From: Candidatus Atelocyanobacterium thalassae | Lineage (GTDB): Bacteria; Cyanobacteriota; Cyanobacteriia; Cyanobacteriales; Microcystaceae | Assembly (NCBI GenBank): GCA_051971635.1 | Contig: JBFPLN010000003.1 | Coordinates: 352,001 to 416,000, forward strand | Direction: 5' to 3' | Length of the DNA: 64,000 bases | Shown: in pieces, positions 5,916 through 55,171 of the stretch | How positions within the stretch are numbered: the first letter of the stretch is position 1 | Layout of the letters: every line of letters starts with the position of its first letter | The notes under the pieces: generated by a model | What the model was told of the DNA's origin: nothing | Databases searched by the model: none | Seen by the model: the letters and a program-made list of their open reading frames with translations, nothing else | Position numbers and translations under genes: made by a program

Positions 5916-7103
5916 ATGTATCATATTGTCATTTTAATTATTTGTTTTTCTATAATTGCGTGGATATATTTACTATTATTTAGAGGTGGATTCTGGCTAA
6001 ATAACGAAAAAATTTATAAGATTTCTGATCATCTTGACGATTATCCTTCTGTTTGTGCAATAGTGCCTGCTAGAAATGAAGCTACAGTTATTTCTACAAG
6101 CTTAAGATCTCTTCTAGAACAAGACTATCCGGGGAACTTTTCCATTATTTTAGTTGATGATCAGAGTAATGACAATACAAAAGACATAGCTAGACAAAGT
6201 GCAGAAAGTTACAGCAACTCTAATGATTTACATGTTGTTTCTGGAGTACCTCTTATAACTAATTGGTCAGGAAAACTATGGGCAATCAAACAAGGAATTG
6301 ATAAAGCTAACCAATTAAAAGACAAGCCAGATTATTTTCTTCTAACCGATGCAGATATTAAGCACCATAAGGATAATTTGCAGGAGCTAGTTATCAAGGC
6401 GAAAAAAGAAAACCTAGTTTTAGTCTCATTAATGGTGAAATTAAAATGTAAAAGTTTATGGGAGAAACTATTAATTCCTGCATTCATATTTTTCTTTAAA
6501 AAGCTTTATCCTTTTTCCTGGGTTAATAACTATGACAAAGCAACTGCTGCTGCTGCTGGAGGTTGCATACTAATTAGTCGTTCTATTTTAGAGGAAATTG
6601 GTGGTATCGAAGTACTTAAAGAAACTTTAATTGATGATTGCTCTTTGGCAACTTTTGTCAAGAAAAAATTAAAAGATAATACAAGATATATTAATCAAGG
6701 AATTTGGTTGGGATTAAGTGAAAACACGATTAGTTTACGTTCCTACAATAGGTTGGAACCTATATGGGATATGATAGCAAGAACTGCTTATACCCAGTTA
6801 AACCATTCTCCTTTTATGTTAGTAGGAACATTAGTAGGATTGGCATTTATATATTTAATAGGGCCAATCAGCTTTGCATATGGGTTAGCAGTTCATGATA
6901 AAGCTTTAATAATCATTGGAATGATTAATTGGCTTTTAATGACAGTTGCCTATTTACCAACTGTCATACTATATAAATGTTCGCCTTTATGGGCATTAAG
7001 TTTACCATTTATAACTTCCTTGTACGCTGCAATGACTTTTGATTCAGCCTTAAGGTATTGGAAAGGGAAAGGTGGAAAATGGAAAGGTAGAACTTATAAC
7101 TAG
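5916..7103 (+). CDS. hpnB: Hopene-associated GT2 glycosyltransferase, HpnB-like
   Basis: VPARNE, VDDQS, WSGKLWA, LLTDADI, AAAAGGCIL, LIDDC, MIARTAYTQL and a C-terminal GGKWKGR. Confidence 0.8.
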   Translation: MYHIVILIICFSIIAWIYLLLFRGGFWLNNEKIYKISDHLDDYPSVCAIVPARNEATVISTSLRSLLEQDYPGNFSIILVDDQSNDNTKDIARQSAESYSNSNDLHVVSGVPLITNWSGKLWAIKQGIDKANQLKDKPDYFLLTDADIKHHKDNLQELVIKAKKENLVLVSLMVKLKCKSLWEKLLIPAFIFFFKKLYPFSWVNNYDKATAAAAGGCILISRSILEEIGGIEVLKETLIDDCSLATFVKKKLKDNTRYINQGIWLGLSENTISLRSYNRLEPIWDMIARTAYTQLNHSPFMLVGTLVGLAFIYLIGPISFAYGLAVHDKALIIIGMINWLLMTVAYLPTVILYKCSPLWALSLPFITSLYAAMTFDSALRYWKGKGGKWKGRTYN

Positions 7104-17072: not shown

Positions 17073-17477
17073 AATTTTATTAACAAATAAATTATTAAGC
17101 TGGAAAATTATAATTTATAAGGAATAAGATCACATAAGCTGAAATATGTGTAATTTAAAAAATGTATGATAAAAATGTTGCGTTTTTTAACATTCTCGAG
17201 TAAATAATTTTTATACGATATAATTCAAGGAATAACTAATAAAGTAACTATCGTTCAAATACAGATATTAAAATCTTATATAGTTAAATAAATAAAAGCT
17301 TAATATCTTTTTATATATAGCTTACTGGATAAGTAAACTATATGTGGCAGTACATGAACAAACCTTATCTTATAATCTAAAGTATAGATACGTTACCACA
17401 TTTCAAAAATATGATGCTAGTCAAATATTTGACTTTCATAAATGAAATTTTTATAAAAACCAGGAGTTGTGCTACAT

Positions 17478-20400
17478 ATGTTCACCCACGTTAAGTCAAC
17501 CATTCGTCATATTATTCCAGAGACAGTCAATGGTCGTTCTTTGCTAAAGGTAGTCTATGTTGTATTAGAACCACAGTATCAAAGTTCCCTCTCTGCAGCA
17601 GTTAGAAACATTAATAGTAGCAATTCTAAAATAGCAATTGAAGTAAGTGGATATCTAATAGAAGAACTTCGAGATCCGGAAAATTATAAACAGTTTCAAC
17701 AAGATGTAGAACAAGCAAACTTGTTCATTGCTTCCTTGATTTTTATTGAAGATTTGGCCGATAAGGTTGTTGAAACTGTTTTACCTTTCCGTGAGAAATT
17801 AGATGCTATAATAATTTTTCCATCAATGCCACAAGTGATGCGTTTGAATAAATTGGGAAGCTTCTCAATGAGTCAGTTGGGTCAATCTAAAAGTATGGTT
17901 TCCCAATTTATGCGTAAACGACAGCAGAATTCTGGAACAGGTTTTCAAGATGCAATGCTAAAGTTATTACGTACACTGCCTCAGGTTTTAAAATATCTTC
18001 CGGTAGAAAAGGCACAAGACGCTCGAAACTTTATGTTAAGTTTCCAATATTGGTTAGGCGGTTCTTCAGAAAATTTAGAGAACTTTCTACTCATGTTAGC
18101 TCATAAATACTCTTTTCCTGACCTATTTAAAAATGAAGTAATTAGTTATAAAGAACCCATTGTTTATCCTGATATAGGAATCTGGCATCCCTTATCATTG
18201 AAAATGTTTGAAGATATTACATCTTATTTAGAATGGTATAATGCGCGTACAGATATTTCAGACGATCTAAAAAAATCTACAACACCATGTATAGGATTAG
18301 TACTCCAAAGAACTCATTTAGTAACAAAAGATGATGCTCATTACGTTGCGATGGTTCAAGAATTAGAGTCAATGGGAGTAAGAGTTATTCCTGTATTTGC
18401 AGGCGGTTTAGATTTTTCTAAACCTATCGAAGCATATTTTTGGAATAATTCTACTACTAATAACAATAGCGCGAGAACTCCTATAATAGATACCATCGTT
18501 TCTTTAACAGGATTTGCCTTAGTAGGTGGACCGGCAAGACAAGATCATCCAAAAGCAATAGATGCATTAAAATCTTTAAATTGCCCTTATATGTGCGTAT
18601 TACCATTAGTATTTCAAACTACTGAAGAATGGGAGGATAGTGATTTAGGATTACATCCAATTCAAGTTGCATTACAAATAGCTATACCTGAACTAGATGG
18701 TGCTATCGAACCTATAATATTATCAGGAAGAGATGGTAATACCGGACGATCAATAGCGCTTCAAGATCGTATTGAAACAATTGCACAAAGAGCTGCAAAA
18801 TGGGCTAGTTTAAGAAAAAAAGCAAGGATAGATAAAAAAATAGCTATCACTATTTTTAGTTTTCCACCTGATAAAGGCAATATTGGATCAGCAGCATATT
18901 TAGATGTATTTAGTTCTATTTACGAAGTAATAAAAGCGCTAAAGGATAAAGGGTATAACTTATCAGAGCTACCAGATTCACCAAAAGCTTTAATGGATAG
19001 TATCATCCAAGATGCTCAAGCTCAATATGCTTCTCCTGAACTAAATGTAGCTTATCGAATGTCTGTTGAAGAATATGAAAAATTAACTCCATACTCTACA
19101 CGTTTAGAAGAAAATTGGGGAACTCCTCCTGGAAATCTTAATAGTGACGGTCAAAATTTAGTTATATATGGTAAGCATTTTGGGAATGTTTTTATCGGTG
19201 TGCAACCAACTTTTGGGTATGAAGGAGATCCTATGCGTTTATTATTCTCAAGGTCTGCTAGTCCTCATCATGGATTTGCTGCATACTACACATATTTAAA
19301 CCAAGTTTGGCAAGCAGATGCAGTATTACATTTTGGTACTCATGGATCTTTAGAATTTATGCCAGGAAAACAAATGGGAATGTCAGGTGATTGTTACCCT
19401 GATACTCTAATTGGGAATATTCCTAATTTATATTACTATGCAGCTAATAATCCATCAGAGGCTACTATTGCAAAACGTCGTAGTTATGCAGAAACTATTT
19501 CATACCTAACTCCCCCGGCTGAAAATGCAGGACTCTATAAAGGATTAAAAGAATTAAATGAGTTAATAGGATCATATCAAACTTTAAAAGATAGCAGTCG
19601 CGGAATCCAGATAGTTAATACAGTCATGGATCAATGTCGATTAGTGAATTTAGATAAAGATATTCAGTTACCTGAGATTGACGCAAAAGAAATGACTGCA
19701 GAAGAGAAAAACAATATTATTGGTATTGTTTACAGTAAACTCATGGAAATTGAGTCTCGTCTGTTGCCATGTGGTCTACATGTTATTGGTAAAGCTCCAA
19801 CAGGGGAAGAAGTAGTTGCAACGCTAGTAAATATTGCATCACTAGACAGAGAAGAAGAAGAAATAATATGTTTACCGCGCCTCATCGCTGAAAGTATAGG
19901 ACGGGATATTAAAGATATATATTACAACAATGATATTGGTAAACTAGAAGACGTTGAATTATTACAAAAGATTGTGTTAGCAACTAGAGAAGCTATAACT
20001 TCGATGGTTAAAGCAAGCATGAATGAAGAAGGTAGAGTAAATTTCATATCAAAAATAGATATTTTAAAAATTACTCAAAAATCTCCTTGGGCAAGTACTC
20101 TAGAAAAACTAGGATATTCCAAAATTAATAAAAGTTCTTTAAGGTTACTTTTTGAATATCTTCAATCTTGTCTAGAAAAAATTTGCACAAGTCATGAATT
20201 AGATGCACTACTAAAAGGATTAGAAGGAGAATATGTTTTACCTGGACCAGGTGGTGATATTGTTCGTAATCCTGACGTTTTACCAACAGGTAAAAATATT
20301 CATGCATTAGACCCTCAATCTATTCCAACATTAGCTGCAGTAAAGTCTGCCAAAATAGTAGTAGATTCTCTTCTTAAACGTCAAAAAATTGATAATGGAG

Positions 20401-21476
20401 ATAAATATCCAGAAACTATTGCATGTGTTCTTTGGGGTACTGATAATATTAAAACATACGGAGAATCTTTAGCTCAAATTATGTGGATGGTAGGAGTTAA
20501 ACCTCTTCCAGATTCTCTAGGAAGAATTAATAAATTAGAACTAATACCTCTTGAGGATTTGGGAAGACCTCGTATTGATGTTGTTGTAAATTGTTCTGGT
20601 GTATTTCGTGATCTTTTTATTAACCAAATGAACTTATTGGATCAGGCCGTAAAAATGGCAGCAGAAGCGGATGAGCCTTTAGATATGAACTATGTACGTA
20701 AGCATGCGTTACAACAAGCTTCAGAAATGGATATTAATGTTAGAGAAGCTGCAACTCGTATCTTTTCTAATGCGTCTGGTTCTTATTCTTCTAATGTTAA
20801 TTTAGCAGTAGAAAACAGTAGTTGGGAAAAGGAAGAAGAGTTACAGAATATGTATTTAAATAGAAAAAGTTTTTCTTTTGATTCAAGTAATCCTGGTGTT
20901 ATGAAAGATAATAGAAAAATATTCGAATCTGCTCTAAAGACAGCTAGTGCAACTTTCCAAAATTTAGACTCCTCGGAAGTTAGTTTGACAGATGTTTCCC
21001 ATTATTTTGATTCTGATCCAACAAAAATTGTAGCTAGTTTAAGAGAGGATGGGCAAGAGCCTGCAGCTTATATAGCTGATACAACGACTGCTAATGCACA
21101 AGTACGTACTTTATCTGAAACTATTCGACTAGATACACGTACTAAGTTATTAAATCCAAAGTGGTATGAAGGGATGTTATCTCATGGCTATGAGGGTGTT
21201 AGAGAAATTTCGAAACGTTTAGTAAACACTATGGGATGGTCTGCGACTGCTAATGCAGTCGATAACTGGGTATATGAAGATGCAAATACTACATTTATTG
21301 AAGATGAAGAAATGTGTAAACGTTTAATGGATCTAAACCCTAATTCTTTTCGTAAGATGGTTAGTACCTTATTAGAAGTTAATGGTAGAGGCTATTGGGA
21401 AACATCTGACAGTAATTTGGAACGATTACAAGAGCTTTATCAACAAGTTGAAGATAAAATTGAAGGGGTAGACTAA
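17478..21476 (+). CDS. chlH: Magnesium chelatase subunit H
   Basis: MFTHVK start, [39 protein letters not shown] and [11 protein letters not shown]; uninterrupted frame. Confidence 0.97.
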
Positions 21477-27743: not shown

Positions 27744-28997
27744 TTAATTTTTACGATAATATAAATCCTCTCTTTTTCCCATGGCAAAAGCTAAAGATGT
27801 TTTTACTGTCCGGTTAGACTGACTAATAAACAGGACAAATGCAATCAAAGCTAGATTGCTACTAAGAGTAAAAATAGTTTGATAAGTGAGTTGACTTCCT
27901 AAAATACCTATTATTGGTCCTGCAAGGGCTATTCCAAGATCATAACCGCCAAGACAAACAGAGTAGACTTGACCTCTTTCTTGAGGAGATGAACGGTCAG
28001 AAACTAAGGCAATAATCATAGGCATAAGAATTCCTGCTCCTATTCCTTCAAAAATAGCAGCCAAACATAATTGTTGATTTCCTGTTGCTTGAGTTAATAG
28101 GATCATTGAAACGAAATAGCAAAGAATACTAATTGTAATAAACAATCCACGGCCAAATCTATCAGCTACCCTACCTAAAAAAATTCTCGATAAAAAGCTT
28201 GTAATAGAAGCTAACGTATAAAATAAACCTGCATTAAAATCTAATCCTTTCTCTTCTAAAAAAAGAGGTAAAAAAGTTATTATGGTACCAAATAACAATC
28301 CAACTAATAATAAAACCAATGTTGGAATTACTAGGGAATGACTAGATAAAATTTTATAAAAGCTGTGAGACAAATTATTATTGTCAGTATCAGAAATATC
28401 ATAAGAATTAAAATTAGATTCTTTTCTCATTGCTGCTACTAAGAGTAACCCTAAAAAACCACAGCTTGCCGAAACAGTGAATAAACTAATATATCCAAAA
28501 TTCTCTTTTAACCAGTCTCCAAAGATAGGGCCAATACTCATACCAATAGGTGTTACTAAACTCATATAACCAATTATTTTCCCCCTATGTTTTACAGGAG
28601 AAAAATCTATTACTAAAGCACTGTAAGCTGTAGTAAAGGCAGAAATACTAATACCATGAATCGCACGAACAATAACTAAAGGAAAGATTGTTTGAACAAT
28701 AAGATAATTTAATGGAGATAGAGTTGCAATAATTACTCCTATGTAGAGCACTAATTTTCTACTTTTAGTATCAGCTAAGTAACCTAATAGTGTGCGAGAA
28801 AATAATGATCCTACAGCGAAACTACCCAAAATCAAACCAATTTGAGGTTTTGTACCACCAAGATATTCTATATATGTTGGTAAGGTGGGTAATAAAACTG
28901 TAATGCTAATCCAAAAAAATAAGCTTACTCCTAATAGAAGTCCTAAGTTCTGTTTTTGTCGAAAATCAAGATCAGTATAATCCATTAAGATGTCCAC
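27744..28997 (-). CDS. MFS transporter
   Basis: About 12 TM segments; motif A variants GYLADTKSRK and GRVADRFGR. Confidence 0.9.
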   Translation of the reverse strand: MDILMDYTDLDFRQKQNLGLLLGVSLFFWISITVLLPTLPTYIEYLGGTKPQIGLILGSFAVGSLFSRTLLGYLADTKSRKLVLYIGVIIATLSPLNYLIVQTIFPLVIVRAIHGISISAFTTAYSALVIDFSPVKHRGKIIGYMSLVTPIGMSIGPIFGDWLKENFGYISLFTVSASCGFLGLLLVAAMRKESNFNSYDISDTDNNNLSHSFYKILSSHSLVIPTLVLLLVGLLFGTIITFLPLFLEEKGLDFNAGLFYTLASITSFLSRIFLGRVADRFGRGLFITISILCYFVSMILLTQATGNQQLCLAAIFEGIGAGILMPMIIALVSDRSSPQERGQVYSVCLGGYDLGIALAGPIIGILGSQLTYQTIFTLSSNLALIAFVLFISQSNRTVKTSLAFAMGKREDLYYRKN

Positions 28998-31346: not shown

Positions 31347-32699
31347 TTATTTTTTGTATTCTAGTAAAGGAATACTATATGAAGTAAACTTTACTTTATT
31401 TAAGGCATTAATAATTAATTTTTCATCGTTAGGCCAATAACTTTCATCTAACCTAATTAATTTTTTATTTTTTTTATCTTGAAGAAATATGAAAATTGGT
31501 ATTTTAGTCTGATTACTTTTTCCAGCATGCCCAGATAGGATAGATTTTAGATTCTGACAAGATACTTTATTAGTTGCTTGTTCCTGATTCAAATTAATAA
31601 TGACTATTTTGATAGAATCTAAATTTTGGGCATTTTCTATAATTATTTGTACTTTATCGTCTCGGAAATCAACTTTTCCCCAAATAATTAATACAGAATC
31701 TTTTACTAAAGTATCCTTAATTTTCTTATAACTATTTGGAAAGCAAACTCCTTCAATCTGTCTTGAAACATCTTCTAAGGTAAGAAAGGACATTTGATCT
31801 CCCTTTTTAGTTGTATATTCCTTAATCTCATTGATTATAGATACAATAACAACTTGTCTTTTAGCTTTTTGGATCACTATTTCGTCGAAAGAAAGTGGAG
31901 AGAGTATTGAAACTGATTCTTTAATTATTCTTAAAGGATGTTCTGAAACATAAAATCCAAGATACTCTTTCTCAAATTTAAGTTTCTCTTGTAAAGAAAA
32001 ATCTTCAACTATTGGAGAACTTGGAACATCTTCATATTCTAAATTTAAGTTAGAACTGTCAGGGCTATTAGTGATTAAATCAAAAATATTTAATTGACCA
32101 CTTTCTTTATCCTTTGCTCTTTTTTGTGCCCAAGATATTACTAAATCAAGATCATTAATTAACTGTTTACGATTACTGGCTATGCTATCAAAAGCACCAG
32201 AATAAATTAAAGTTTCTAATGCCCTTTTATTAACAGTCCTTGAATCGGTATGAGAACAAAAATCTGCAAGAGATTTAAAATTGGTAGTTAGTTCTGTTCT
32301 GGCTTTTAAAATACTTTCTATTGCACCCTCTCCTAGATTTCTAACGGCTGATAATCCGAAAAGAATTTGATTTCTTAAAGGAGTAAAGTCTTTTAGAGAA
32401 AGGCTAATATCTGGAGGTAAAACTTCAATACCCATTTTTTGACAATTTTCTCTGTATTTTTCTACTTTATCTTGATTATCACTGTTGGCACTTAGTAAGG
32501 CAGTCATGTATTCAACAGGGTAATTAGCTTTTAAATATGCTGTCTGATAGGTTATGTAAGCATAAGCAGTGGAATGAGATTTATTAAAACAGTTAGAAGC
32601 TATTAAACCATTATTTAATATAAAATTATGATCTTTTTCTATACCAATATCAAATACTTCATGAATTCCTAAAGATTTACGACGTATAATTTTAGCCAT
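31347..32699 (-). CDS. dnaE-C: DnaE-C: C-terminal half of split DNA polymerase III alpha, led by the 36-aa C-intein
   Basis: MAKIIRRKSLGIHEVFDIGIEKDHNFILNNGLIASN|CFNKSHSTAY..YLKANYP, followed by HhH/OB-fold regions (FGLSAVRNLG, EKEYLGFYVSEHP). Confidence 0.97.
   Translation of the reverse strand: MAKIIRRKSLGIHEVFDIGIEKDHNFILNNGLIASNCFNKSHSTAYAYITYQTAYLKANYPVEYMTALLSANSDNQDKVEKYRENCQKMGIEVLPPDISLSLKDFTPLRNQILFGLSAVRNLGEGAIESILKARTELTTNFKSLADFCSHTDSRTVNKRALETLIYSGAFDSIASNRKQLINDLDLVISWAQKRAKDKESGQLNIFDLITNSPDSSNLNLEYEDVPSSPIVEDFSLQEKLKFEKEYLGFYVSEHPLRIIKESVSILSPLSFDEIVIQKAKRQVVIVSIINEIKEYTTKKGDQMSFLTLEDVSRQIEGVCFPNSYKKIKDTLVKDSVLIIWGKVDFRDDKVQIIIENAQNLDSIKIVIINLNQEQATNKVSCQNLKSILSGHAGKSNQTKIPIFIFLQDKKNKKLIRLDESYWPNDEKLIINALNKVKFTSYSIPLLEYKK
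32592..32699 (-). other. DnaE split-intein C-fragment (Int-C)
   Basis: 36 aa; block F VFDIG...HNF and terminal ASN, followed by the +1 Cys of CFN (32589-32591). Confidence 0.95.
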
Positions 32700-32885: not shown

Positions 32886-34013
32886 TTAATATAAATCGTA
32901 TTTTAATAAGGTACAGTTTAAAGAACCATTATAAATTGGAGTACGATTAGATGCTCTTAAGCCAATTTGTTGAGTTAATTTTTTATCTTCACTTAAAATA
33001 TAAGCTACCCATCCTTTAAAGCGATGTTTGAGTACATCTCCTAATAGTTTGTATAATTTCCCTAATTCTTGAGAGTCTCCTATACGCCTACCATAAGGAG
33101 GATTACATATAATAATTCCTTTATCTGCTGGTGCTTCAATATCTTTTAAAGCTATTTGAATAAAATCAATATATTTTTCAATATTACATCTTTTTGCATT
33201 AATCCTTGCCTGCTCTATTACTGATAAATTATGATCACTGCCAAAAATAGGTGCTTTAAGTTTTTTTCTCTGTTTTTTGACTGCCTCATTAATTATATTT
33301 TTATAAAGTTTTTCATCAAAATCTGGCCAAAATTGAAATCCAAAAGATTTTCTATTTAATCCCACAGCCATATTTAAACTTTTCAAGGTTGCTTCAATAG
33401 GTATAGTTCCTGATCCACACATAGGATCTAATAAACAAATATCAGGTGTCCATTCTGCTATATCCAATAGTGCTGCAGCCAAACTTTCTTTAATAGGTGC
33501 GAGTCCCATAGCTGCACGATATCCTCTTCTATGTAAACTATTTCCAGAGCTATCTAAACTTAGGATGCATGAATTGTCGTTAATATGCGCATTTATTAAA
33601 ATCTCAGGATTTTTAGTATCAATAGTAGATCTTTTATTAAAACGATCTCTTTGCTGGTCAATAATAGAATTTTTAATTTGTAGAGCAGTAAAGTGAGTAT
33701 GATTTAACTTTAAGTTTTTCCCTGTACAATTTACTGCAAATGTCTGTTCTGTCTTTAAATATTGAGACCAATCTATTTTGCCAACATTATCATATAGTTC
33801 TAGCCCATCATTACATCTAATTGTAAAAATAGGCATTAGAAAACGAAGAATAGTTCTTGACCATATGTTTACTCTATATAACAAGGATTTATCACCTTGA
33901 AAATATACTCCTGCAAATGTAATTTCAATACTCTTAGCGTTTAAATTTTTTAATTCCTGAGCAGCCACTTTTTCCAATCCTCTAGCGACAGTGGCGAAGT
34001 ATTGATTAGGCAT
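32886..34013 (-). CDS. THUMP-domain SAM-dependent RNA methyltransferase (RlmL-like)
   Basis: RGLE, SLDSSGNSLHRRGYR, APIKESLAAA, DPMCGSGT and NPPYG. Confidence 0.9.
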   Translation of the reverse strand: MPNQYFATVARGLEKVAAQELKNLNAKSIEITFAGVYFQGDKSLLYRVNIWSRTILRFLMPIFTIRCNDGLELYDNVGKIDWSQYLKTEQTFAVNCTGKNLKLNHTHFTALQIKNSIIDQQRDRFNKRSTIDTKNPEILINAHINDNSCILSLDSSGNSLHRRGYRAAMGLAPIKESLAAALLDIAEWTPDICLLDPMCGSGTIPIEATLKSLNMAVGLNRKSFGFQFWPDFDEKLYKNIINEAVKKQRKKLKAPIFGSDHNLSVIEQARINAKRCNIEKYIDFIQIALKDIEAPADKGIIICNPPYGRRIGDSQELGKLYKLLGDVLKHRFKGWVAYILSEDKKLTQQIGLRASNRTPIYNGSLNCTLLKYDLY

Positions 34014-34409: not shown

Positions 34410-35830
34410 ATGTCTAAAAACTATTGAATAAATAATGACGGGCAACAATCATTAAATTCTATAAGTTATTTATTTCCAGATTAGTCAAATTCAAGCTGTG
34501 GAGACAAACATTTGAAAAGCAAATTTTTTCAAGGTCTATTAGGAAGGCGAAAAAAAGCTGCTTTTGTATTAATTATTGTTTGGGGTATCATTATCAGCTT
34601 ATATTTTGTACCTTGGGGAATCTGGATTGTTTATATAATAACCACTCTTTTGAGTTTTCGATCACTTCTTATTATCATAACTCAACCAACTAGAATATCC
34701 ACGTCTTTACCTTACGAGGATTTAAAGCAAATTCCTTCAGTCTCTTTACTAGTAGCAATAAAGAACGAAGAAACCGTTATTCGTCAATTAGTAACAGAAT
34801 TATGTGGTTTAGATTATGTGCTTGGAAAATACGATCTCTGGATTGTAAATGATCATAGTACTGATAAAACAGTTAGTATACTAAACGACTTGGCTCAAGA
34901 ATATCCTCAACTTAATATCCTTCTCTTGTAGCAAGAGGTGGTAAATCTGGGGCTCTAAAGAGTGTTCTTCAAAAAGCTAGAGAAGATGTAATTGTAGCTT
35001 TTAATGCAAATGCTAGGGTTTCTAAAGACTTATTAAAACATGTAATTCCATTATTTGCTCAAGAAGAAATAGGTGCAGTACAAGTACGCAAGAAAGTTGT
35101 CAATGAGACCTTAAATTTATGGACTCGGGAATAAGCAGCAGAGATGGCGTTAGATAGTTTTTTTCAAGAGCAACGTATTTCAGTTAATGGGATTGGAGGA
35201 TTACGAGATAATGGCCAGCTTGTTCGTCGTATCGCTTTAGCTAAACGTGGAGGATAGAGCGAACAAACTATTACCGATGATTTGGATTTGACTATTCGTT
35301 TGCATTTAGATGGTTAGAAAATTAAGTTTTTAAATAATCATGCTGTTGAAGAAGAAGGTGTTGTAAGCGCAAAAGCTTTGTGGCATAAGCGTAATCACTG
35401 GGCAGAGGGAGGTTACTAACGTTATTTAGATTATTGGAAGTTTATCCTATATCAACCTATGGGATGGAGTAAAAAGTTTGACTTAATTTTATTTACATTA
35501 GTGCAGTATCTTTTACCGAGTGCTATTACTCCTGATTTTATAATGATGATTGTTCATCACCGTTTATCCTTATTAAGTCTTTTGATAGGGCTAATGCTAT
35601 CTTTATCTTGCTGGGGAATGTTTGTAGGCTTACGTCGAATTTATGGTAAAACAGTTTGGACAACTTTTAGTGTATTACGCTTAATCATAAAAACTTTATG
35701 GGGGGTATTATATATGATGCATTGGTTAATTGTTATGCCTTGTGTTAGAGGGAGAATGTCAATTAGAGCTAAACGTTTAAAGTAGATTAAAACTATACAT
35801 CAAGGGACTATCGTAACAATTGATGAATAA
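34410..35830 (+). pseudogene. mgdA: Monoglucosyldiacylglycerol synthase (sll1377-type GT2), inactivated
   Basis: Full-length relic containing FFQGLLGRRKKAA, AIKNEE, GGKSGAL, GAVQVRK, AEMALDSFFQEQR, EQTITDDLDLTIRLHL, VEEEGV, WAEGGY*RYLDYW, QYLLP, YMMHWL and KRLK*IKTIH. Stops at 34425, 34482, 35132, 35255, 35315, 35417 and 35783; frameshift near 34925. Confidence 0.92.
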
Positions 35831-36225: not shown

Positions 36226-37368
36226 ATGAAATACGCCTTAGTTCATGAATGGCTAACTCCAAAAGCTACAGGAGGTTCTGAATTAGTAGTCAAAGAAATT
36301 CTTAAGCATATAAAAGCTGATGTTTATTCTCTTATTGACTTTGAATCTACTAATCCTAAAAGTTATCTTTATAACCGCTCTATTGGAACCACTTTCTTAC
36401 AATATTTCCCTTTAGCCTATAACGGCGTTCAAAAGTATTTACCTTTTTTGCCTTTAGCTATAGAGCAATTGGATTTAAGAGAATACGATGTAATACTATC
36501 TTCTTCTCACTCTGTAGCTAAAGGAATACTTGCCAGTCCACATCAGCTTCATGTATGTTACTGTCATACACCAATGCGCTATGCCTGGGATTTAACTTTT
36601 GACTATCTCAAAAATTCTATAATAGGTAGAGGAATTCCTGGAATATTTACTCGTTATTTATTACATCATTTAAGACAGTGGGATGTTATCTCTGCTAATC
36701 GTGTTGATTTTTTTATAGCTAATTCTCACCATACTGCTGATCGTATATGGCGTTGCTATCGTCGTAAGGCCAAGGTTATATATCCTCCAGTAGATATAGA
36801 TAGATTTACTTATACTGCTAAAAAAGATAATTTTTATGTTACTGTTTCTAGGCTAGTTAGTTATAAAAAAATTAACTTAATTGTACAGGCCTTCAATAAG
36901 CTAGGATATCCTTTAATCGTTATCGGTGACGGACCAGAAATTTCTAAAATTCGTTCGATTGCTCAGCCAAATATAAAAATTCTAGGAGCGCAAAAAGATT
37001 CAGTAGTAGAAAACTATGTTGCAAAAGCAAAAGCTTTTATATATGCTGCTTGTGAAGATTTTGGAATAGCTTTAGTAGAAGCTCAAGCTTGTGGTACTCC
37101 AGTTATTGCTTATGGGAATGGTGGTGCATTAGAGACTGTAATTGATGTTCAAAAAAATGTACAAGATGGAACTGGAATTTTATTTAAAGATCAAACTGTT
37201 CAGTCTCTTGTTGAAGCAGTTGAAACTTTTCATGATTTTCAACATCAAGTAAATCCTGAAAGTTGTCGCCGTCAAGCGGAGAAATTTTCTCCTAAAATCT
37301 TTGAAACATCTTACTTAGCTTTTTTAGAAAAATGCTATGAAGACTTTACTGCAAATTCCTCGTCATAA
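36226..37368 (+). CDS. GT4 glycosyltransferase (WbaZ-like mannosyltransferase)
   Basis: VHEWL..GGSE, HVCYCHTPMRYAW, SRLVSYK and EDFGIALVEAQACGTPV. Confidence 0.88.
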   Translation: MKYALVHEWLTPKATGGSELVVKEILKHIKADVYSLIDFESTNPKSYLYNRSIGTTFLQYFPLAYNGVQKYLPFLPLAIEQLDLREYDVILSSSHSVAKGILASPHQLHVCYCHTPMRYAWDLTFDYLKNSIIGRGIPGIFTRYLLHHLRQWDVISANRVDFFIANSHHTADRIWRCYRRKAKVIYPPVDIDRFTYTAKKDNFYVTVSRLVSYKKINLIVQAFNKLGYPLIVIGDGPEISKIRSIAQPNIKILGAQKDSVVENYVAKAKAFIYAACEDFGIALVEAQACGTPVIAYGNGGALETVIDVQKNVQDGTGILFKDQTVQSLVEAVETFHDFQHQVNPESCRRQAEKFSPKIFETSYLAFLEKCYEDFTANSSS

Positions 37369-49928: not shown

Positions 49929-50288
49929 ATGTTAGTTAAATATACTACTCGGCATGTCCGTATTTTTACAGCTGAAGTCAAAGAAAATGAGTTAGTTGAA
50001 AATGATAAAATACTTACTCTAGATATCGATCCTGACAATGAATTTATCTGGAATGAAGATATCCTAGAGAAAGTTTATCGTAAATTTGATGAGTTAATAG
50101 AATTCTCTAGTGGAGAAGATTTAACTGATTATAATCTTAATTATATTGGTTCGTCATTAGAAGATTTTATTCGTGATCTTTTACAGAAAGGTGATATTAG
50201 TTATAACTTAGGAGGACGCTCTCCTAATTATAGTATGGGATTACCTAGAGTTAGAAACATAGAAACCGAAGGAAAATATAATCTATAA
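49929..50288 (+). CDS. ndhM: NDH-1 subunit M
   Basis: TTRHVRIF, LTLDIDPDNEF, YRKFDEL, DLTDYNL and NYSMGLP. Confidence 0.93.
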   Translation: MLVKYTTRHVRIFTAEVKENELVENDKILTLDIDPDNEFIWNEDILEKVYRKFDELIEFSSGEDLTDYNLNYIGSSLEDFIRDLLQKGDISYNLGGRSPNYSMGLPRVRNIETEGKYNL

Positions 50289-53786: not shown

Positions 53787-54944
53787 TTAAGAGCATTTGG
53801 TCATTTTTCCATGTTTGGTTAATTTATACTTACTATTACGCCATATAACAGTTCTTTGCGTAAAAGCTAATCCCCAAAAAATCAAGCCAAACATATCCCT
53901 CAAAGGTAATAAATATAAATTTTTAATACTTTCATTATCTCTTATTTCTCGAGCTACTATAAAAGCAGTAAATATCCTAATAAATATTGTTATAATCAAT
54001 ACCCATAAGCTAATTATACTTCCTTCGAGCATACAGAATATAATAGCAAATGGAATTGCTCGAATAAAAATAGTTGAAATAAATGCTCCAGGTCTCGCTA
54101 AATAAGTATTCTGATCCCAATATACTTGATGATCCCACCAATTTTTCCAACTTTTCAAGTCTACAACAACATCTATGACGTAAGGCAAAAGTATCATACT
54201 TTTGCCAGAAGTCCATACTCTCCTTCCAATCTCATAGTCTTCGACCAGATAATTAGCTAAACTTTTTAATCCTCCAAATGAATCCAAAGTCGATTTATGA
54301 ATTGCAATAGATGGACCTAAACATGAATTTGAAGCCCCTGTCACATATGCAAAAATAACACTTGGTATAAAATCTGAATTAATCGTTAACATTTCTAGTC
54401 TCTCACATAAGCTATTAGCTTTTATGAGTTTAAAAGGGGTACAAACACAGCCAACTTCTTTTTTAGTGAGAGGTGTAACAATATTAGAAATGTAATCACT
54501 TTGCAAATAAGTATCACTATCACTTATTATGAAGAGTTCATGTTTTGCTTCATCAATTGCTCCTAACAAATTATTAACTTTCCCATTAGCTCCTTCTTCA
54601 ACCGTACTAATAACAACAGAGACAAAGTCTCTACCTAATTCAGATTGAATTTTTTTTAAGATAGGATATGCAGGGTCATCCGATGCTTGAACAGAATAAA
54701 TTATTTGGTAATTAGGATATTTTTGTTTAGTAATACTTCTTAGATTGCTTTCCAGATTTTTCTCTAAACCTCTAACAGGCTTTAAAACTGATACTGGTGG
54801 AGTAAAATCTTTATTTATGAAAGTATTTGTACGAGAAGATTTTAAAAAATATTTAGTTGTGAAAACAGTAATAATTGAAAAAACTGATCCACATATGATG
54901 GGTATTAAACAGAGTAATGATAGTGTGCTGTAAATATCTATCAT
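53787..54944 (-). CDS. hpnI: Hopanoid glycosyltransferase HpnI-like (ceramide glucosyltransferase, GT21-like)
   Basis: PPVSVLKPVRGLE, DDPA, GANGKVNNL, ISDSD and FGGL..LANYLVEDY.IG. ATG at 54944 is preferred; the ORF track starts at 55016. Confidence 0.75.
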   Translation of the reverse strand: MIDIYSTLSLLCLIPIICGSVFSIITVFTTKYFLKSSRTNTFINKDFTPPVSVLKPVRGLEKNLESNLRSITKQKYPNYQIIYSVQASDDPAYPILKKIQSELGRDFVSVVISTVEEGANGKVNNLLGAIDEAKHELFIISDSDTYLQSDYISNIVTPLTKKEVGCVCTPFKLIKANSLCERLEMLTINSDFIPSVIFAYVTGASNSCLGPSIAIHKSTLDSFGGLKSLANYLVEDYEIGRRVWTSGKSMILLPYVIDVVVDLKSWKNWWDHQVYWDQNTYLARPGAFISTIFIRAIPFAIIFCMLEGSIISLWVLIITIFIRIFTAFIVAREIRDNESIKNLYLLPLRDMFGLIFWGLAFTQRTVIWRNSKYKLTKHGKMTKCS

Positions 54945-55171
54945 GAATTTATGTGTTTTATTGTGCGATAAGATTAACGTATGTATCGATAAACTAAAAA
55001 TAGTTTTATATACCAAACAAAGTCCGTTAATAAATTTCTTTGTGTTGAAGCTTGCTTTGAAATTAGTAAATAAGTTACTTCAGTAACGTACTTAATCTTT
55101 TTTAAATAGGGAAATTATTTTGGGCGATTACAGTAATTAATTTACTTATGTCGTGCCTTTAGATTATTTTC

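Follow-up and report, generated by a model that had tools for sequence, protein, structure and literature searches.

Recent and repeated loss of the monoglucosyl-diacylglycerol synthase gene mgdA, with retention of mgdE, across nitroplast sublineages

Beyond the general reduction of the genome studied here, our results revealed that mgdA, the gene for the first step of cyanobacterial galactolipid synthesis, has recently been lost, that this loss is real and is repeated across nitroplast sublineages, and that the gene for the next enzyme, mgdE, has been kept. The sequence analyzed is a 64,000-nt stretch of DNA (contig JBFPLN010000003.1, positions 352,001-416,000; hereafter the window, to which all coordinates refer) from a genome, G000, of 1,469,411 bases in 6 contigs with 31% GC. 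Two sister UCYN-A genomes, G001 and G002, each a single contig, were used for comparison, and a relative with an intact 476-codon mgdA, G021, served as the alignment reference. At 34410-35830 on the plus strand, the window carries a true mgdA pseudogene, an orthologue of GT2 monoglucosyl-diacylglycerol (DAG) synthases of about 470 codons with seven premature stops and one frameshift.

Results

The gene spans two frames, from the ATG at 34410 to about 34925 and then from about 34931 to the TAA at 35828-35830. As originally predicted, the open reading frames at 34512-34931 (+), with the N-terminal membrane helices and the start of the GT2 domain, and at 35459-35785 (+), with the C-terminal membrane helices, are pieces of this one gene: the two-frame read-through aligns with the intact G021 gene such that 468 of 476 codons pair, seven of them being stops. 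Codon alignment to G021 located every one of the seven premature stops, all of which are G>A or C>T transitions, at W6 (TGA, 34425-34427), W25 (TAG, 34482-34484), Q244 (TAA, 35132-35134), W285 (TAG, 35255-35257), W305 (TAG, 35315-35317), Q339 (TAA, 35417-35419), and W461 (TAG, 35783-35785), the last of which ends the second residual frame. The frameshift that had been placed near 34925 proved to be a 7-nt deletion (34920-34931, +). The predicted erosion of motifs stood for two of three sites: the DxD motif has changed from DAD to NAN (35003-35011, +) and QRNRW to KRNHW (35387-35401, +), each being invariant in 19 of 19 intact homologues. However, the third change, VDD to VND, need not be decay, because it is common to G002 and is also seen in 1 of the 19 intact homologues. 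Altogether, about 30 of the 153 residues invariant among these homologues have changed, including both DxD aspartates and the Q and R of QRNRW, and the window copy, its frame broken and its DxD and QxxRW motifs altered, is a pseudogene of the family and no working member. Separately, 5 of 16 conserved Trp codons have become stops, mostly in a TGGA context, in excess of the average change at G in the G000 copy; this excess possibly reflects a context-dependent mutation bias.

These lesions are genuine. We compared 4 of 20 listed sequencing runs (X2, X5, X7, and X10), of which X2 is a possible source of G000, while the others derive from three studies other than that of X2 and gave short contigs at a depth of ~2-5x. 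Jointly, the contigs of X5, X7, and X10 cover the seven stops and the deletion with zero differing letters at those places, so all eight lesions recur in other studies. Specifically, X10 has the same letters at W6 and agrees at W25, X5 and X7 agree at Q244, X5 and X10 at both W285 and Q339, X5 at W305, and X7 at W461, and record 13 of X7 is gapless against the window over 34719-35085, the region of the deletion. Further, X5 and X10 add two lesions, ATG>ATA at 34412 and a T inserted behind 35396. With its start codon gone and one nucleotide inserted in these runs but not in the window, the pseudogene varies between wild populations, and its decay continues in the wild.

The identification as mgdA held, the best match not being to another GT2 family. 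Pfam GT2 matches lie on both read-through halves, the GT2 domain and its flanking helices (~475 aa) are those of the MgdA family, and orthology is to MgdA rather than to other GT2 families. Among intact homologues, the closest carries the name beta-monoglucosyldiacylglycerol synthase, and the pseudogene is 54-64% identical to that of G021, whose species has a 476-aa gene given as the sll1377 orthologue in Table S2 of PMC12903740. The C-terminal half of the read-through groups with the MgdA of G021 and G004 (96% ultrafast bootstrap, 299 columns). As no NCBIfam model scored above its cut-off on the intact homologue, the name mgdA rests on orthology. The neighborhood is likewise familiar. To the left lies an RlmL-like RNA methyltransferase gene (32886-34013, -), a synteny anchor in G001 and G002, and to the right a GT4 glycosyltransferase gene (36226-37368, +); in G021, a GT4 gene and a sugar transferase gene also lie downstream of mgdA, with one gene between, and the order in the window is the same. 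At 5 of the 6 loci listed outside UCYN-A, mgdA adjoins mgdE.

That the cell has no second copy, as the original prediction implied, was borne out by an HMM search over 1750 ORFs and by tblastn, neither of which found an intact mgdA genome-wide; the other GT2 proteins of G000-G002 match MgdA over 105-211 residues only, at 21-34% identity. An intact mgdA is also absent from both single-contig sisters. The G002 copy has decayed differently: what remains of it at the syntenic place has lost large stretches and aligns over 326 codons, 10 of them stops. The G001 copy has been deleted, the syntenic position holding a 557-bp gap with no trace of mgdA. Elsewhere, the gene is close to universal. Of the 88 other genomes in the family, 84 match mgdA at 1e-30 (G001, G002, and two drafts do not), and at the level of the order, a match at 1e-60 was obtained in 247 of the 250 others that are at least 97% complete, although several of the matches listed (all but 112) contain one stop. 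Among five drafts without a match, mgdE lies at a contig end in G054 and G073, and both neighbors are missing in G167, pointing to assembly gaps. Two further drafts that are 99% complete, G031 (L141) and G108 (L140), have mgdE and gave no mgdA match, and some free-living relatives have a second, divergent mgdA-like gene, such as the intact one of 45% identity at L079 (G076:C1:3444102-3445328). The mgdA frame is open in five diatom-endosymbiont-type genomes of genus g19 (2.5-3.1 Mb), one of which, G020, also has mgdE and dgdA. This agrees with Table S2 of PMC12903740, in which all six diatom endosymbionts, lacking both photosystems, keep mgdA, mgdE, and dgdA. All cyanobacteria have been stated to have MgdA (PMC4742570). 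Its deletion is lethal in Synechocystis (PMC3916417), upholding the premise that this step is essential in free-living cyanobacteria, and up to 2023 neither a natural nor an engineered complete mgdA knockout had been reported (PMC9816115). Given these observations, assembly errors, or an intact mgdA in an unassembled part of the genome, are hardly credible explanations. G000 is indeed in 6 contigs, and the draft relatives G088 and G089 carry frameshifted mgdA genes, but those show no residue decay, whereas conserved residues are eroded throughout the window copy, every lesion recurs in three other studies, and two single-contig sisters are also without an intact gene.

The losses appear to be late and separate. 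Between G000 and G002, the mgdA remnants give a dN/dS of 0.31 (bootstrap 0.22-0.44), as compared with 0.03-0.26 in 23 intact genes, which is raised, yet far from neutral. Parsimony, with rates taken from the 4-fold sites in 21 genes, assigns to the G000 branch of mgdA 40 of the 99 changes expected at its non-degenerate sites and to the G002 branch 68 of 102, the same ratio being 0.20 and 0.17, respectively, in intact genes. A fitted reversible model gives, at conserved sites, 33 of 163 expected in G000 and 59 of 134 in G002, with ratios of 0.06-0.14 for four intact controls. Changes common to G000 and G002 affect 0.106 of sites in mgdA and 0.099 in mgdE. Because the branch changes are below neutral and the shared changes are like those of mgdE, mgdA was, by these sequence statistics, functional in the G000/G002 ancestor and under selection after the sublineages split, with its death placed in roughly the final 10-25% of the branch leading to G000 and the final 35-60% of that leading to G002, estimates that assume 4-fold sites to be neutral and stationary and that come from one gene pair. 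G001 is the outgroup by 4-fold distance, and its deletion of mgdA is therefore a third loss. Thus, the data indicate separate losses in G000 and G002 after the split, with the gene deleted in G001. A single inactivation in the G000/G002 ancestor was rejected, since the branch changes are far below neutral and chance could account for the coinciding stops (3 of the 29 codons at risk, against an expectation of 1.9; P 0.26). Two of these stops, W25 and Q244, are identical, while W285 was hit separately by different codons, that of G002 being TGA.

The gene for the next enzyme has fared otherwise. mgdE is open in all three UCYN-A genomes, with no lesion, and its product fuses a fatty acid-hydroxylase domain to an SDR domain (PRK07424, 697.7 bits, cut-off 336). 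The His boxes, TGxxG, and YxxxK motifs are kept, 165 of 185 invariant columns are intact in G000, and dN/dS is 0.13-0.19 in both domains for all three genome pairs. From these values, we judge mgdE to be under purifying selection in all three genomes. Most of this dN/dS accrued while mgdA was alive, so that what carries the argument is the lack of lesions together with the G002 branch. On the former count, mgdA, which is gone in G001, has gathered 8 lesions in G000 and a larger number in G002, whereas mgdE, of similar length, has zero. On the latter, G002-only changes relative to the neutral expectation are 0.126 for mgdE and 0.44 for mgdA, at sites conserved in both G021 and G020. Conserved columns have changed at 8 of 157 positions in MgdE, versus 1 of 169 in SqdX, which is compatible with a shifted role for MgdE. 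A PDB search with MgdE returned two weak matches only, and the mgdE and sqdX locus tags were both absent among the rows listed from a published UCYN-A1 microarray table.

A search of the remaining lipid gene set found mgdE, sqdB, and sqdX, while neither dgdA nor a GT28 MGD-like gene was found. dgdA is absent genome-wide from G000-G002, the best match being SqdX at 29-30%, and an MGD-type GT28 (PF06925) was found in 0 of 5 genomes, including G000-G002, with the control positive in 4 of 14. sqdX is intact in G000-G002 and sqdB in G000, which also keeps plsY, plsC, cdsA, pgsA, galE, mlaE, and one acyl-lipid desaturase. Similarly, the UCYN-A column in Table S2 of PMC12903740 gives mgdA, dgdA, and desA as absent and mgdE, sqdB, and sqdX as present. 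An MFS transporter gene in the window (27744-28997, -) has a homologue in G020 (52% identity) with dgdA immediately downstream of it; next to the window gene, a search for a remnant of dgdA found none (best E 0.06). The hopanoid branch is also kept, with genes for the hopene-associated glycosyltransferase HpnB (5916-7103, +), an HpnI-like inverting GT2/GT21 glycosyltransferase (53787-55016, -; TIGR03472, 280.7 bits, cut-off 310), Shc (G000:C6:97516-99414), and HpnA (L080).

G000 carries nifH, nifD, nifN, psaB, and an IsiA-type antenna, and no photosystem II (PSII) reaction center matches were found in any of the three UCYN-A genomes (G000-G002), nor was RbcL found in G000, using one short motif. 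It therefore fits the UCYN-A profile (~1.4-1.5 Mb, nif and PSI positive, without PSII or the RbcL motif), and the relatives of its MgdE at 79-84% identity are named Ca. Atelocyanobacterium. On these genomic features, G000 is assigned to UCYN-A/Ca. Atelocyanobacterium, the nitroplast lineage. The window genes chlH (17469-21476, +; above the NCBIfam cut-off, chlorophyll synthesis thus being kept) and ndhM (49929-50288, +) are both undamaged, as had been claimed. The accompanying claim, that the cell still builds photosynthetic membranes, survives in a narrower form: psaB and the antenna are kept, and cryo-ET of the cultured nitroplast shows many thylakoid-like membranes (bioRxiv 10.64898/2026.04.11.717942), but these membranes are PSI-only, with no PSII. 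The IsiA/Pcb-type chlorophyll antenna gene (L096, G000:C6:69931-70965) is retained despite the absence of PSII. Elsewhere, G000 has 34 gaps of >1.3 kb without an ORF of at least 150 aa, some of which may hold other recent pseudogenes, and a plasmid search gave no match. In the window, 31347-32699 (-) encodes the C-terminal portion of the alpha subunit of DNA polymerase III, here a split protein, with a short N-terminal stretch that we take to resemble the C-intein of cyanobacterial split DnaE.

Discussion

The pathway in Synechocystis runs through MgdA (Sll1377), MgdE (Sll1376), and DgdA (Slr1508), and the UCYN-A pseudogene and mgdE are orthologues of the genes for the first two. Relative to that system, UCYN-A has lost the first and third steps and kept the middle one, whereas Synechocystis needs the first and spares the middle one, its epimerase mutant being able to grow (PMC5897459). 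Thus, a gene essential there has been lost, and one dispensable there has been kept. Since mgdE remains intact and constrained despite the loss of mgdA, glucosyl-DAG probably still reaches MgdE in the organelle, and the conversion of glucosyl-DAG to monogalactosyl-DAG (MGDG) would still run there.

The best of the explanations considered, though still a tentative one, is that the host supplies the glucosyl-DAG. It might do so through a nucleus-encoded DAG glucosyltransferase, imported as other nitroplast gap-filling enzymes are, or by delivering the lipid itself, such that glucosylation by the host would be followed by cyanobacterial epimerization by MgdE; host supply is the weakest step in this scheme. 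The outcome would be PSI-only thylakoids with MGDG and/or GlcDG, SQDG, and PG, and little or no DGDG. Which lipid is actually made we infer throughout, in contrast to the pseudogene, the gene inventory, and the constraint on mgdE, which the sequence data show. The cultured nitroplast imports >350 host proteins by means of a transit peptide, filling pathway gaps (PMC12176269), and by day vesicles are seen between host and nitroplast, and the host membrane is interrupted in places (bioRxiv 10.64898/2026.04.11.717942). A host role is favored because diatom endosymbionts with low import keep the pathway without photosystems (in one of which enrichment was seen for just six host proteins; PMC12176269), whereas the high-import nitroplast has lost it. 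In further support, at least one eukaryote, the heterotrophic stramenopile Platysulcus, has an MgdA-like protein. Nevertheless, the search for an MgdA-like protein gave nothing attributable to the host: among 17 sequences looked up by name, from the best 150 MgdA-like representatives, there was one stramenopile and no haptophyte, and a listing of 120 relatives for the Platysulcus protein included one possibly eukaryotic sequence and no named haptophyte. In the tree, Platysulcus and two possibly eukaryotic MgdA-like GT2 proteins (P0212, P0246, P0326) branch beside the cyanobacterial clade. Counting against host supply are that plants make no glucosyl-DAG (PMC5897459), that endosymbiotic gene transfer has not been reported for the nitroplast host (PMC12176269), and that separate late losses are awkward if a single ancestral import event made mgdA redundant. 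The imported threonine synthase, phosphoserine phosphatase, orotate phosphoribosyltransferase, and Fmt likewise fill single missing steps (PMC12176269), but they are soluble. MgdA, in contrast, is an integral membrane enzyme whose truncated constructs are inactive in Synechocystis (PMC3916417), which makes import, or delivery of the lipid, harder.

The main competing explanations differ in what they make of MgdE. A takeover of the plastid style, by an imported host MGD1-type GT28 or by delivered MGDG and DGDG, with MgdE kept for a second or reverse activity, would draw on a working precedent, as Synechococcus without mgdA and dgdA, the very pair lost by UCYN-A, grows when given plant MGD1 and DGD2 (PMC9816115). 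MGD1 occurs in all plastid-bearing eukaryotes surveyed (PMC4742570), and galE could provide UDP-galactose in a cell that also retains the MlaE lipid-transport permease. However, it does not account for the constraint seen in both domains of MgdE, and we regard it as rather unlikely. Retention of mgdE could instead be explained without any host if an enzyme of the cell itself, such as the HpnI-like GT21 (53787-55016), SqdX using UDP-glucose, or another GT2, made glucosyl-DAG in amounts sufficient in the absence of PSII. Glycosylation of DAG is an activity of bacterial GT21 enzymes, all three UCYN-A genomes retain the HpnI-like gene, and the nearest NCBIfam models to SqdX include alpha-monoglucosyl-DAG synthase, though far below the cut-off. 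A second MGS-type activity has been proposed for Synechocystis thylakoids, but it cannot rescue the loss of mgdA there (PMC3916417). Further, no MGD-type gene was found, a retooled SqdX was rejected for want of any sign (1 of 169 conserved columns changed), and the HpnI-like enzyme has ordinary orthologues (67-69%) in mgdA-bearing relatives and sits alongside a hopanoid pathway, its 39 changed columns of 224 resting on only 3 comparators. Such an in-house replacement is thus unlikely.

It is also conceivable, but quite improbable, that neutral glycoglycerolipids were abandoned, with SQDG, PG, hopanoids, and host lipids making up the PSI-only thylakoids and another lipid serving as the substrate of MgdE. 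PSII is absent, and the best-shown role of DGDG is at PSII (PMC5897459); sqdB, sqdX, pgsA, cdsA, plsY, plsC, shc, hpnA, and hpnB are kept; and thylakoid thickness in the nitroplast varies widely (bioRxiv 10.64898/2026.04.11.717942). Yet diatom endosymbionts that lost both photosystems keep the whole pathway, so PSII loss alone does not release mgdA and was ruled out as a sufficient cause. Moreover, SQDG and PG are both anionic (PMC5897459), so that a neutral bulk lipid would still be needed. We know of no second substrate for MgdE.

Returning to host supply to MgdE, the parallel to plastid evolution put forth in the original prediction, in which MGD1 replaced MgdA and MgdE, holds only in part. 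UCYN-A has lost mgdA and dgdA, yet all three genomes keep an intact and constrained mgdE, a gene for which a direct MGD1-type route has no use. Like primary plastids, the nitroplast is a cyanobacterium-derived organelle with thylakoids, host protein import, and no encoded MgdA; unlike UCYN-A, plastids have lost mgdE too, and the red algal and glaucophyte lines kept dgdA (PMC4742570), which in UCYN-A is gone without a trace, while mgdE is retained and remnants of mgdA are still visible. The Paulinella chromatophore and the diazoplasts of Rhopalodiaceae are likewise young cyanobacterial organelles or endosymbionts with reduced genomes, but the chromatophore encodes mgdA, dgdA, and sqdX, and all six diazoplasts keep mgdA, mgdE, and dgdA. 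The engineered Synechococcus SeGPT (PMC9816115) is missing the same two genes as UCYN-A, although it is PSII-positive, has known replacements, and, as described there, involves no selection on mgdE. We regard the loss of mgdA as belonging, in a new form, with the gene losses that a host makes good in a young organelle.

In a mostly open-access literature, without published import lists, we found no study on UCYN-A mgdA, MGDG, or glycerolipids. The absence of mgdA and dgdA is recorded without comment in a supplementary table of PMC12903740 (2026), in whose main text mgdA, dgdA, and diacylglycerol do not appear, and a 'glycosyltransferase BscA' is among the genes given as unique to one sublineage in PMC11637426. 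The published UCYN-A model includes MGDG and DGDG as biomass, assigned to 12 generic glycosyltransferases (PMC8143392), and the losses reported here correct this gap-filled synthesis.

How and why plastids swapped MgdA and MgdE for MGD1 is unanswered, with no intermediate on record, and a cultured, protein-importing organelle without mgdA and dgdA but with mgdE makes that question testable. Each outcome would be informative, be it a chimeric pathway, a second MGD takeover, a new cyanobacterial glucosyltransferase, or galactolipid-free PSI thylakoids. It is possible, if doubtful, that the bulk thylakoid lipid of the nitroplast is made by a previously undescribed chimeric route, with an imported host DAG glucosyltransferase or host-made glucosyl-DAG feeding MgdE, and that the host takeover, finished long since in plastids, is here half-way and arose in parallel in three sublineages. 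If so, host takeover of lipid synthesis would give direct control over the growth of organelle membranes. Regardless, the loss of mgdA adds a host dependency to be reckoned with in moving the nitroplast into another cell.
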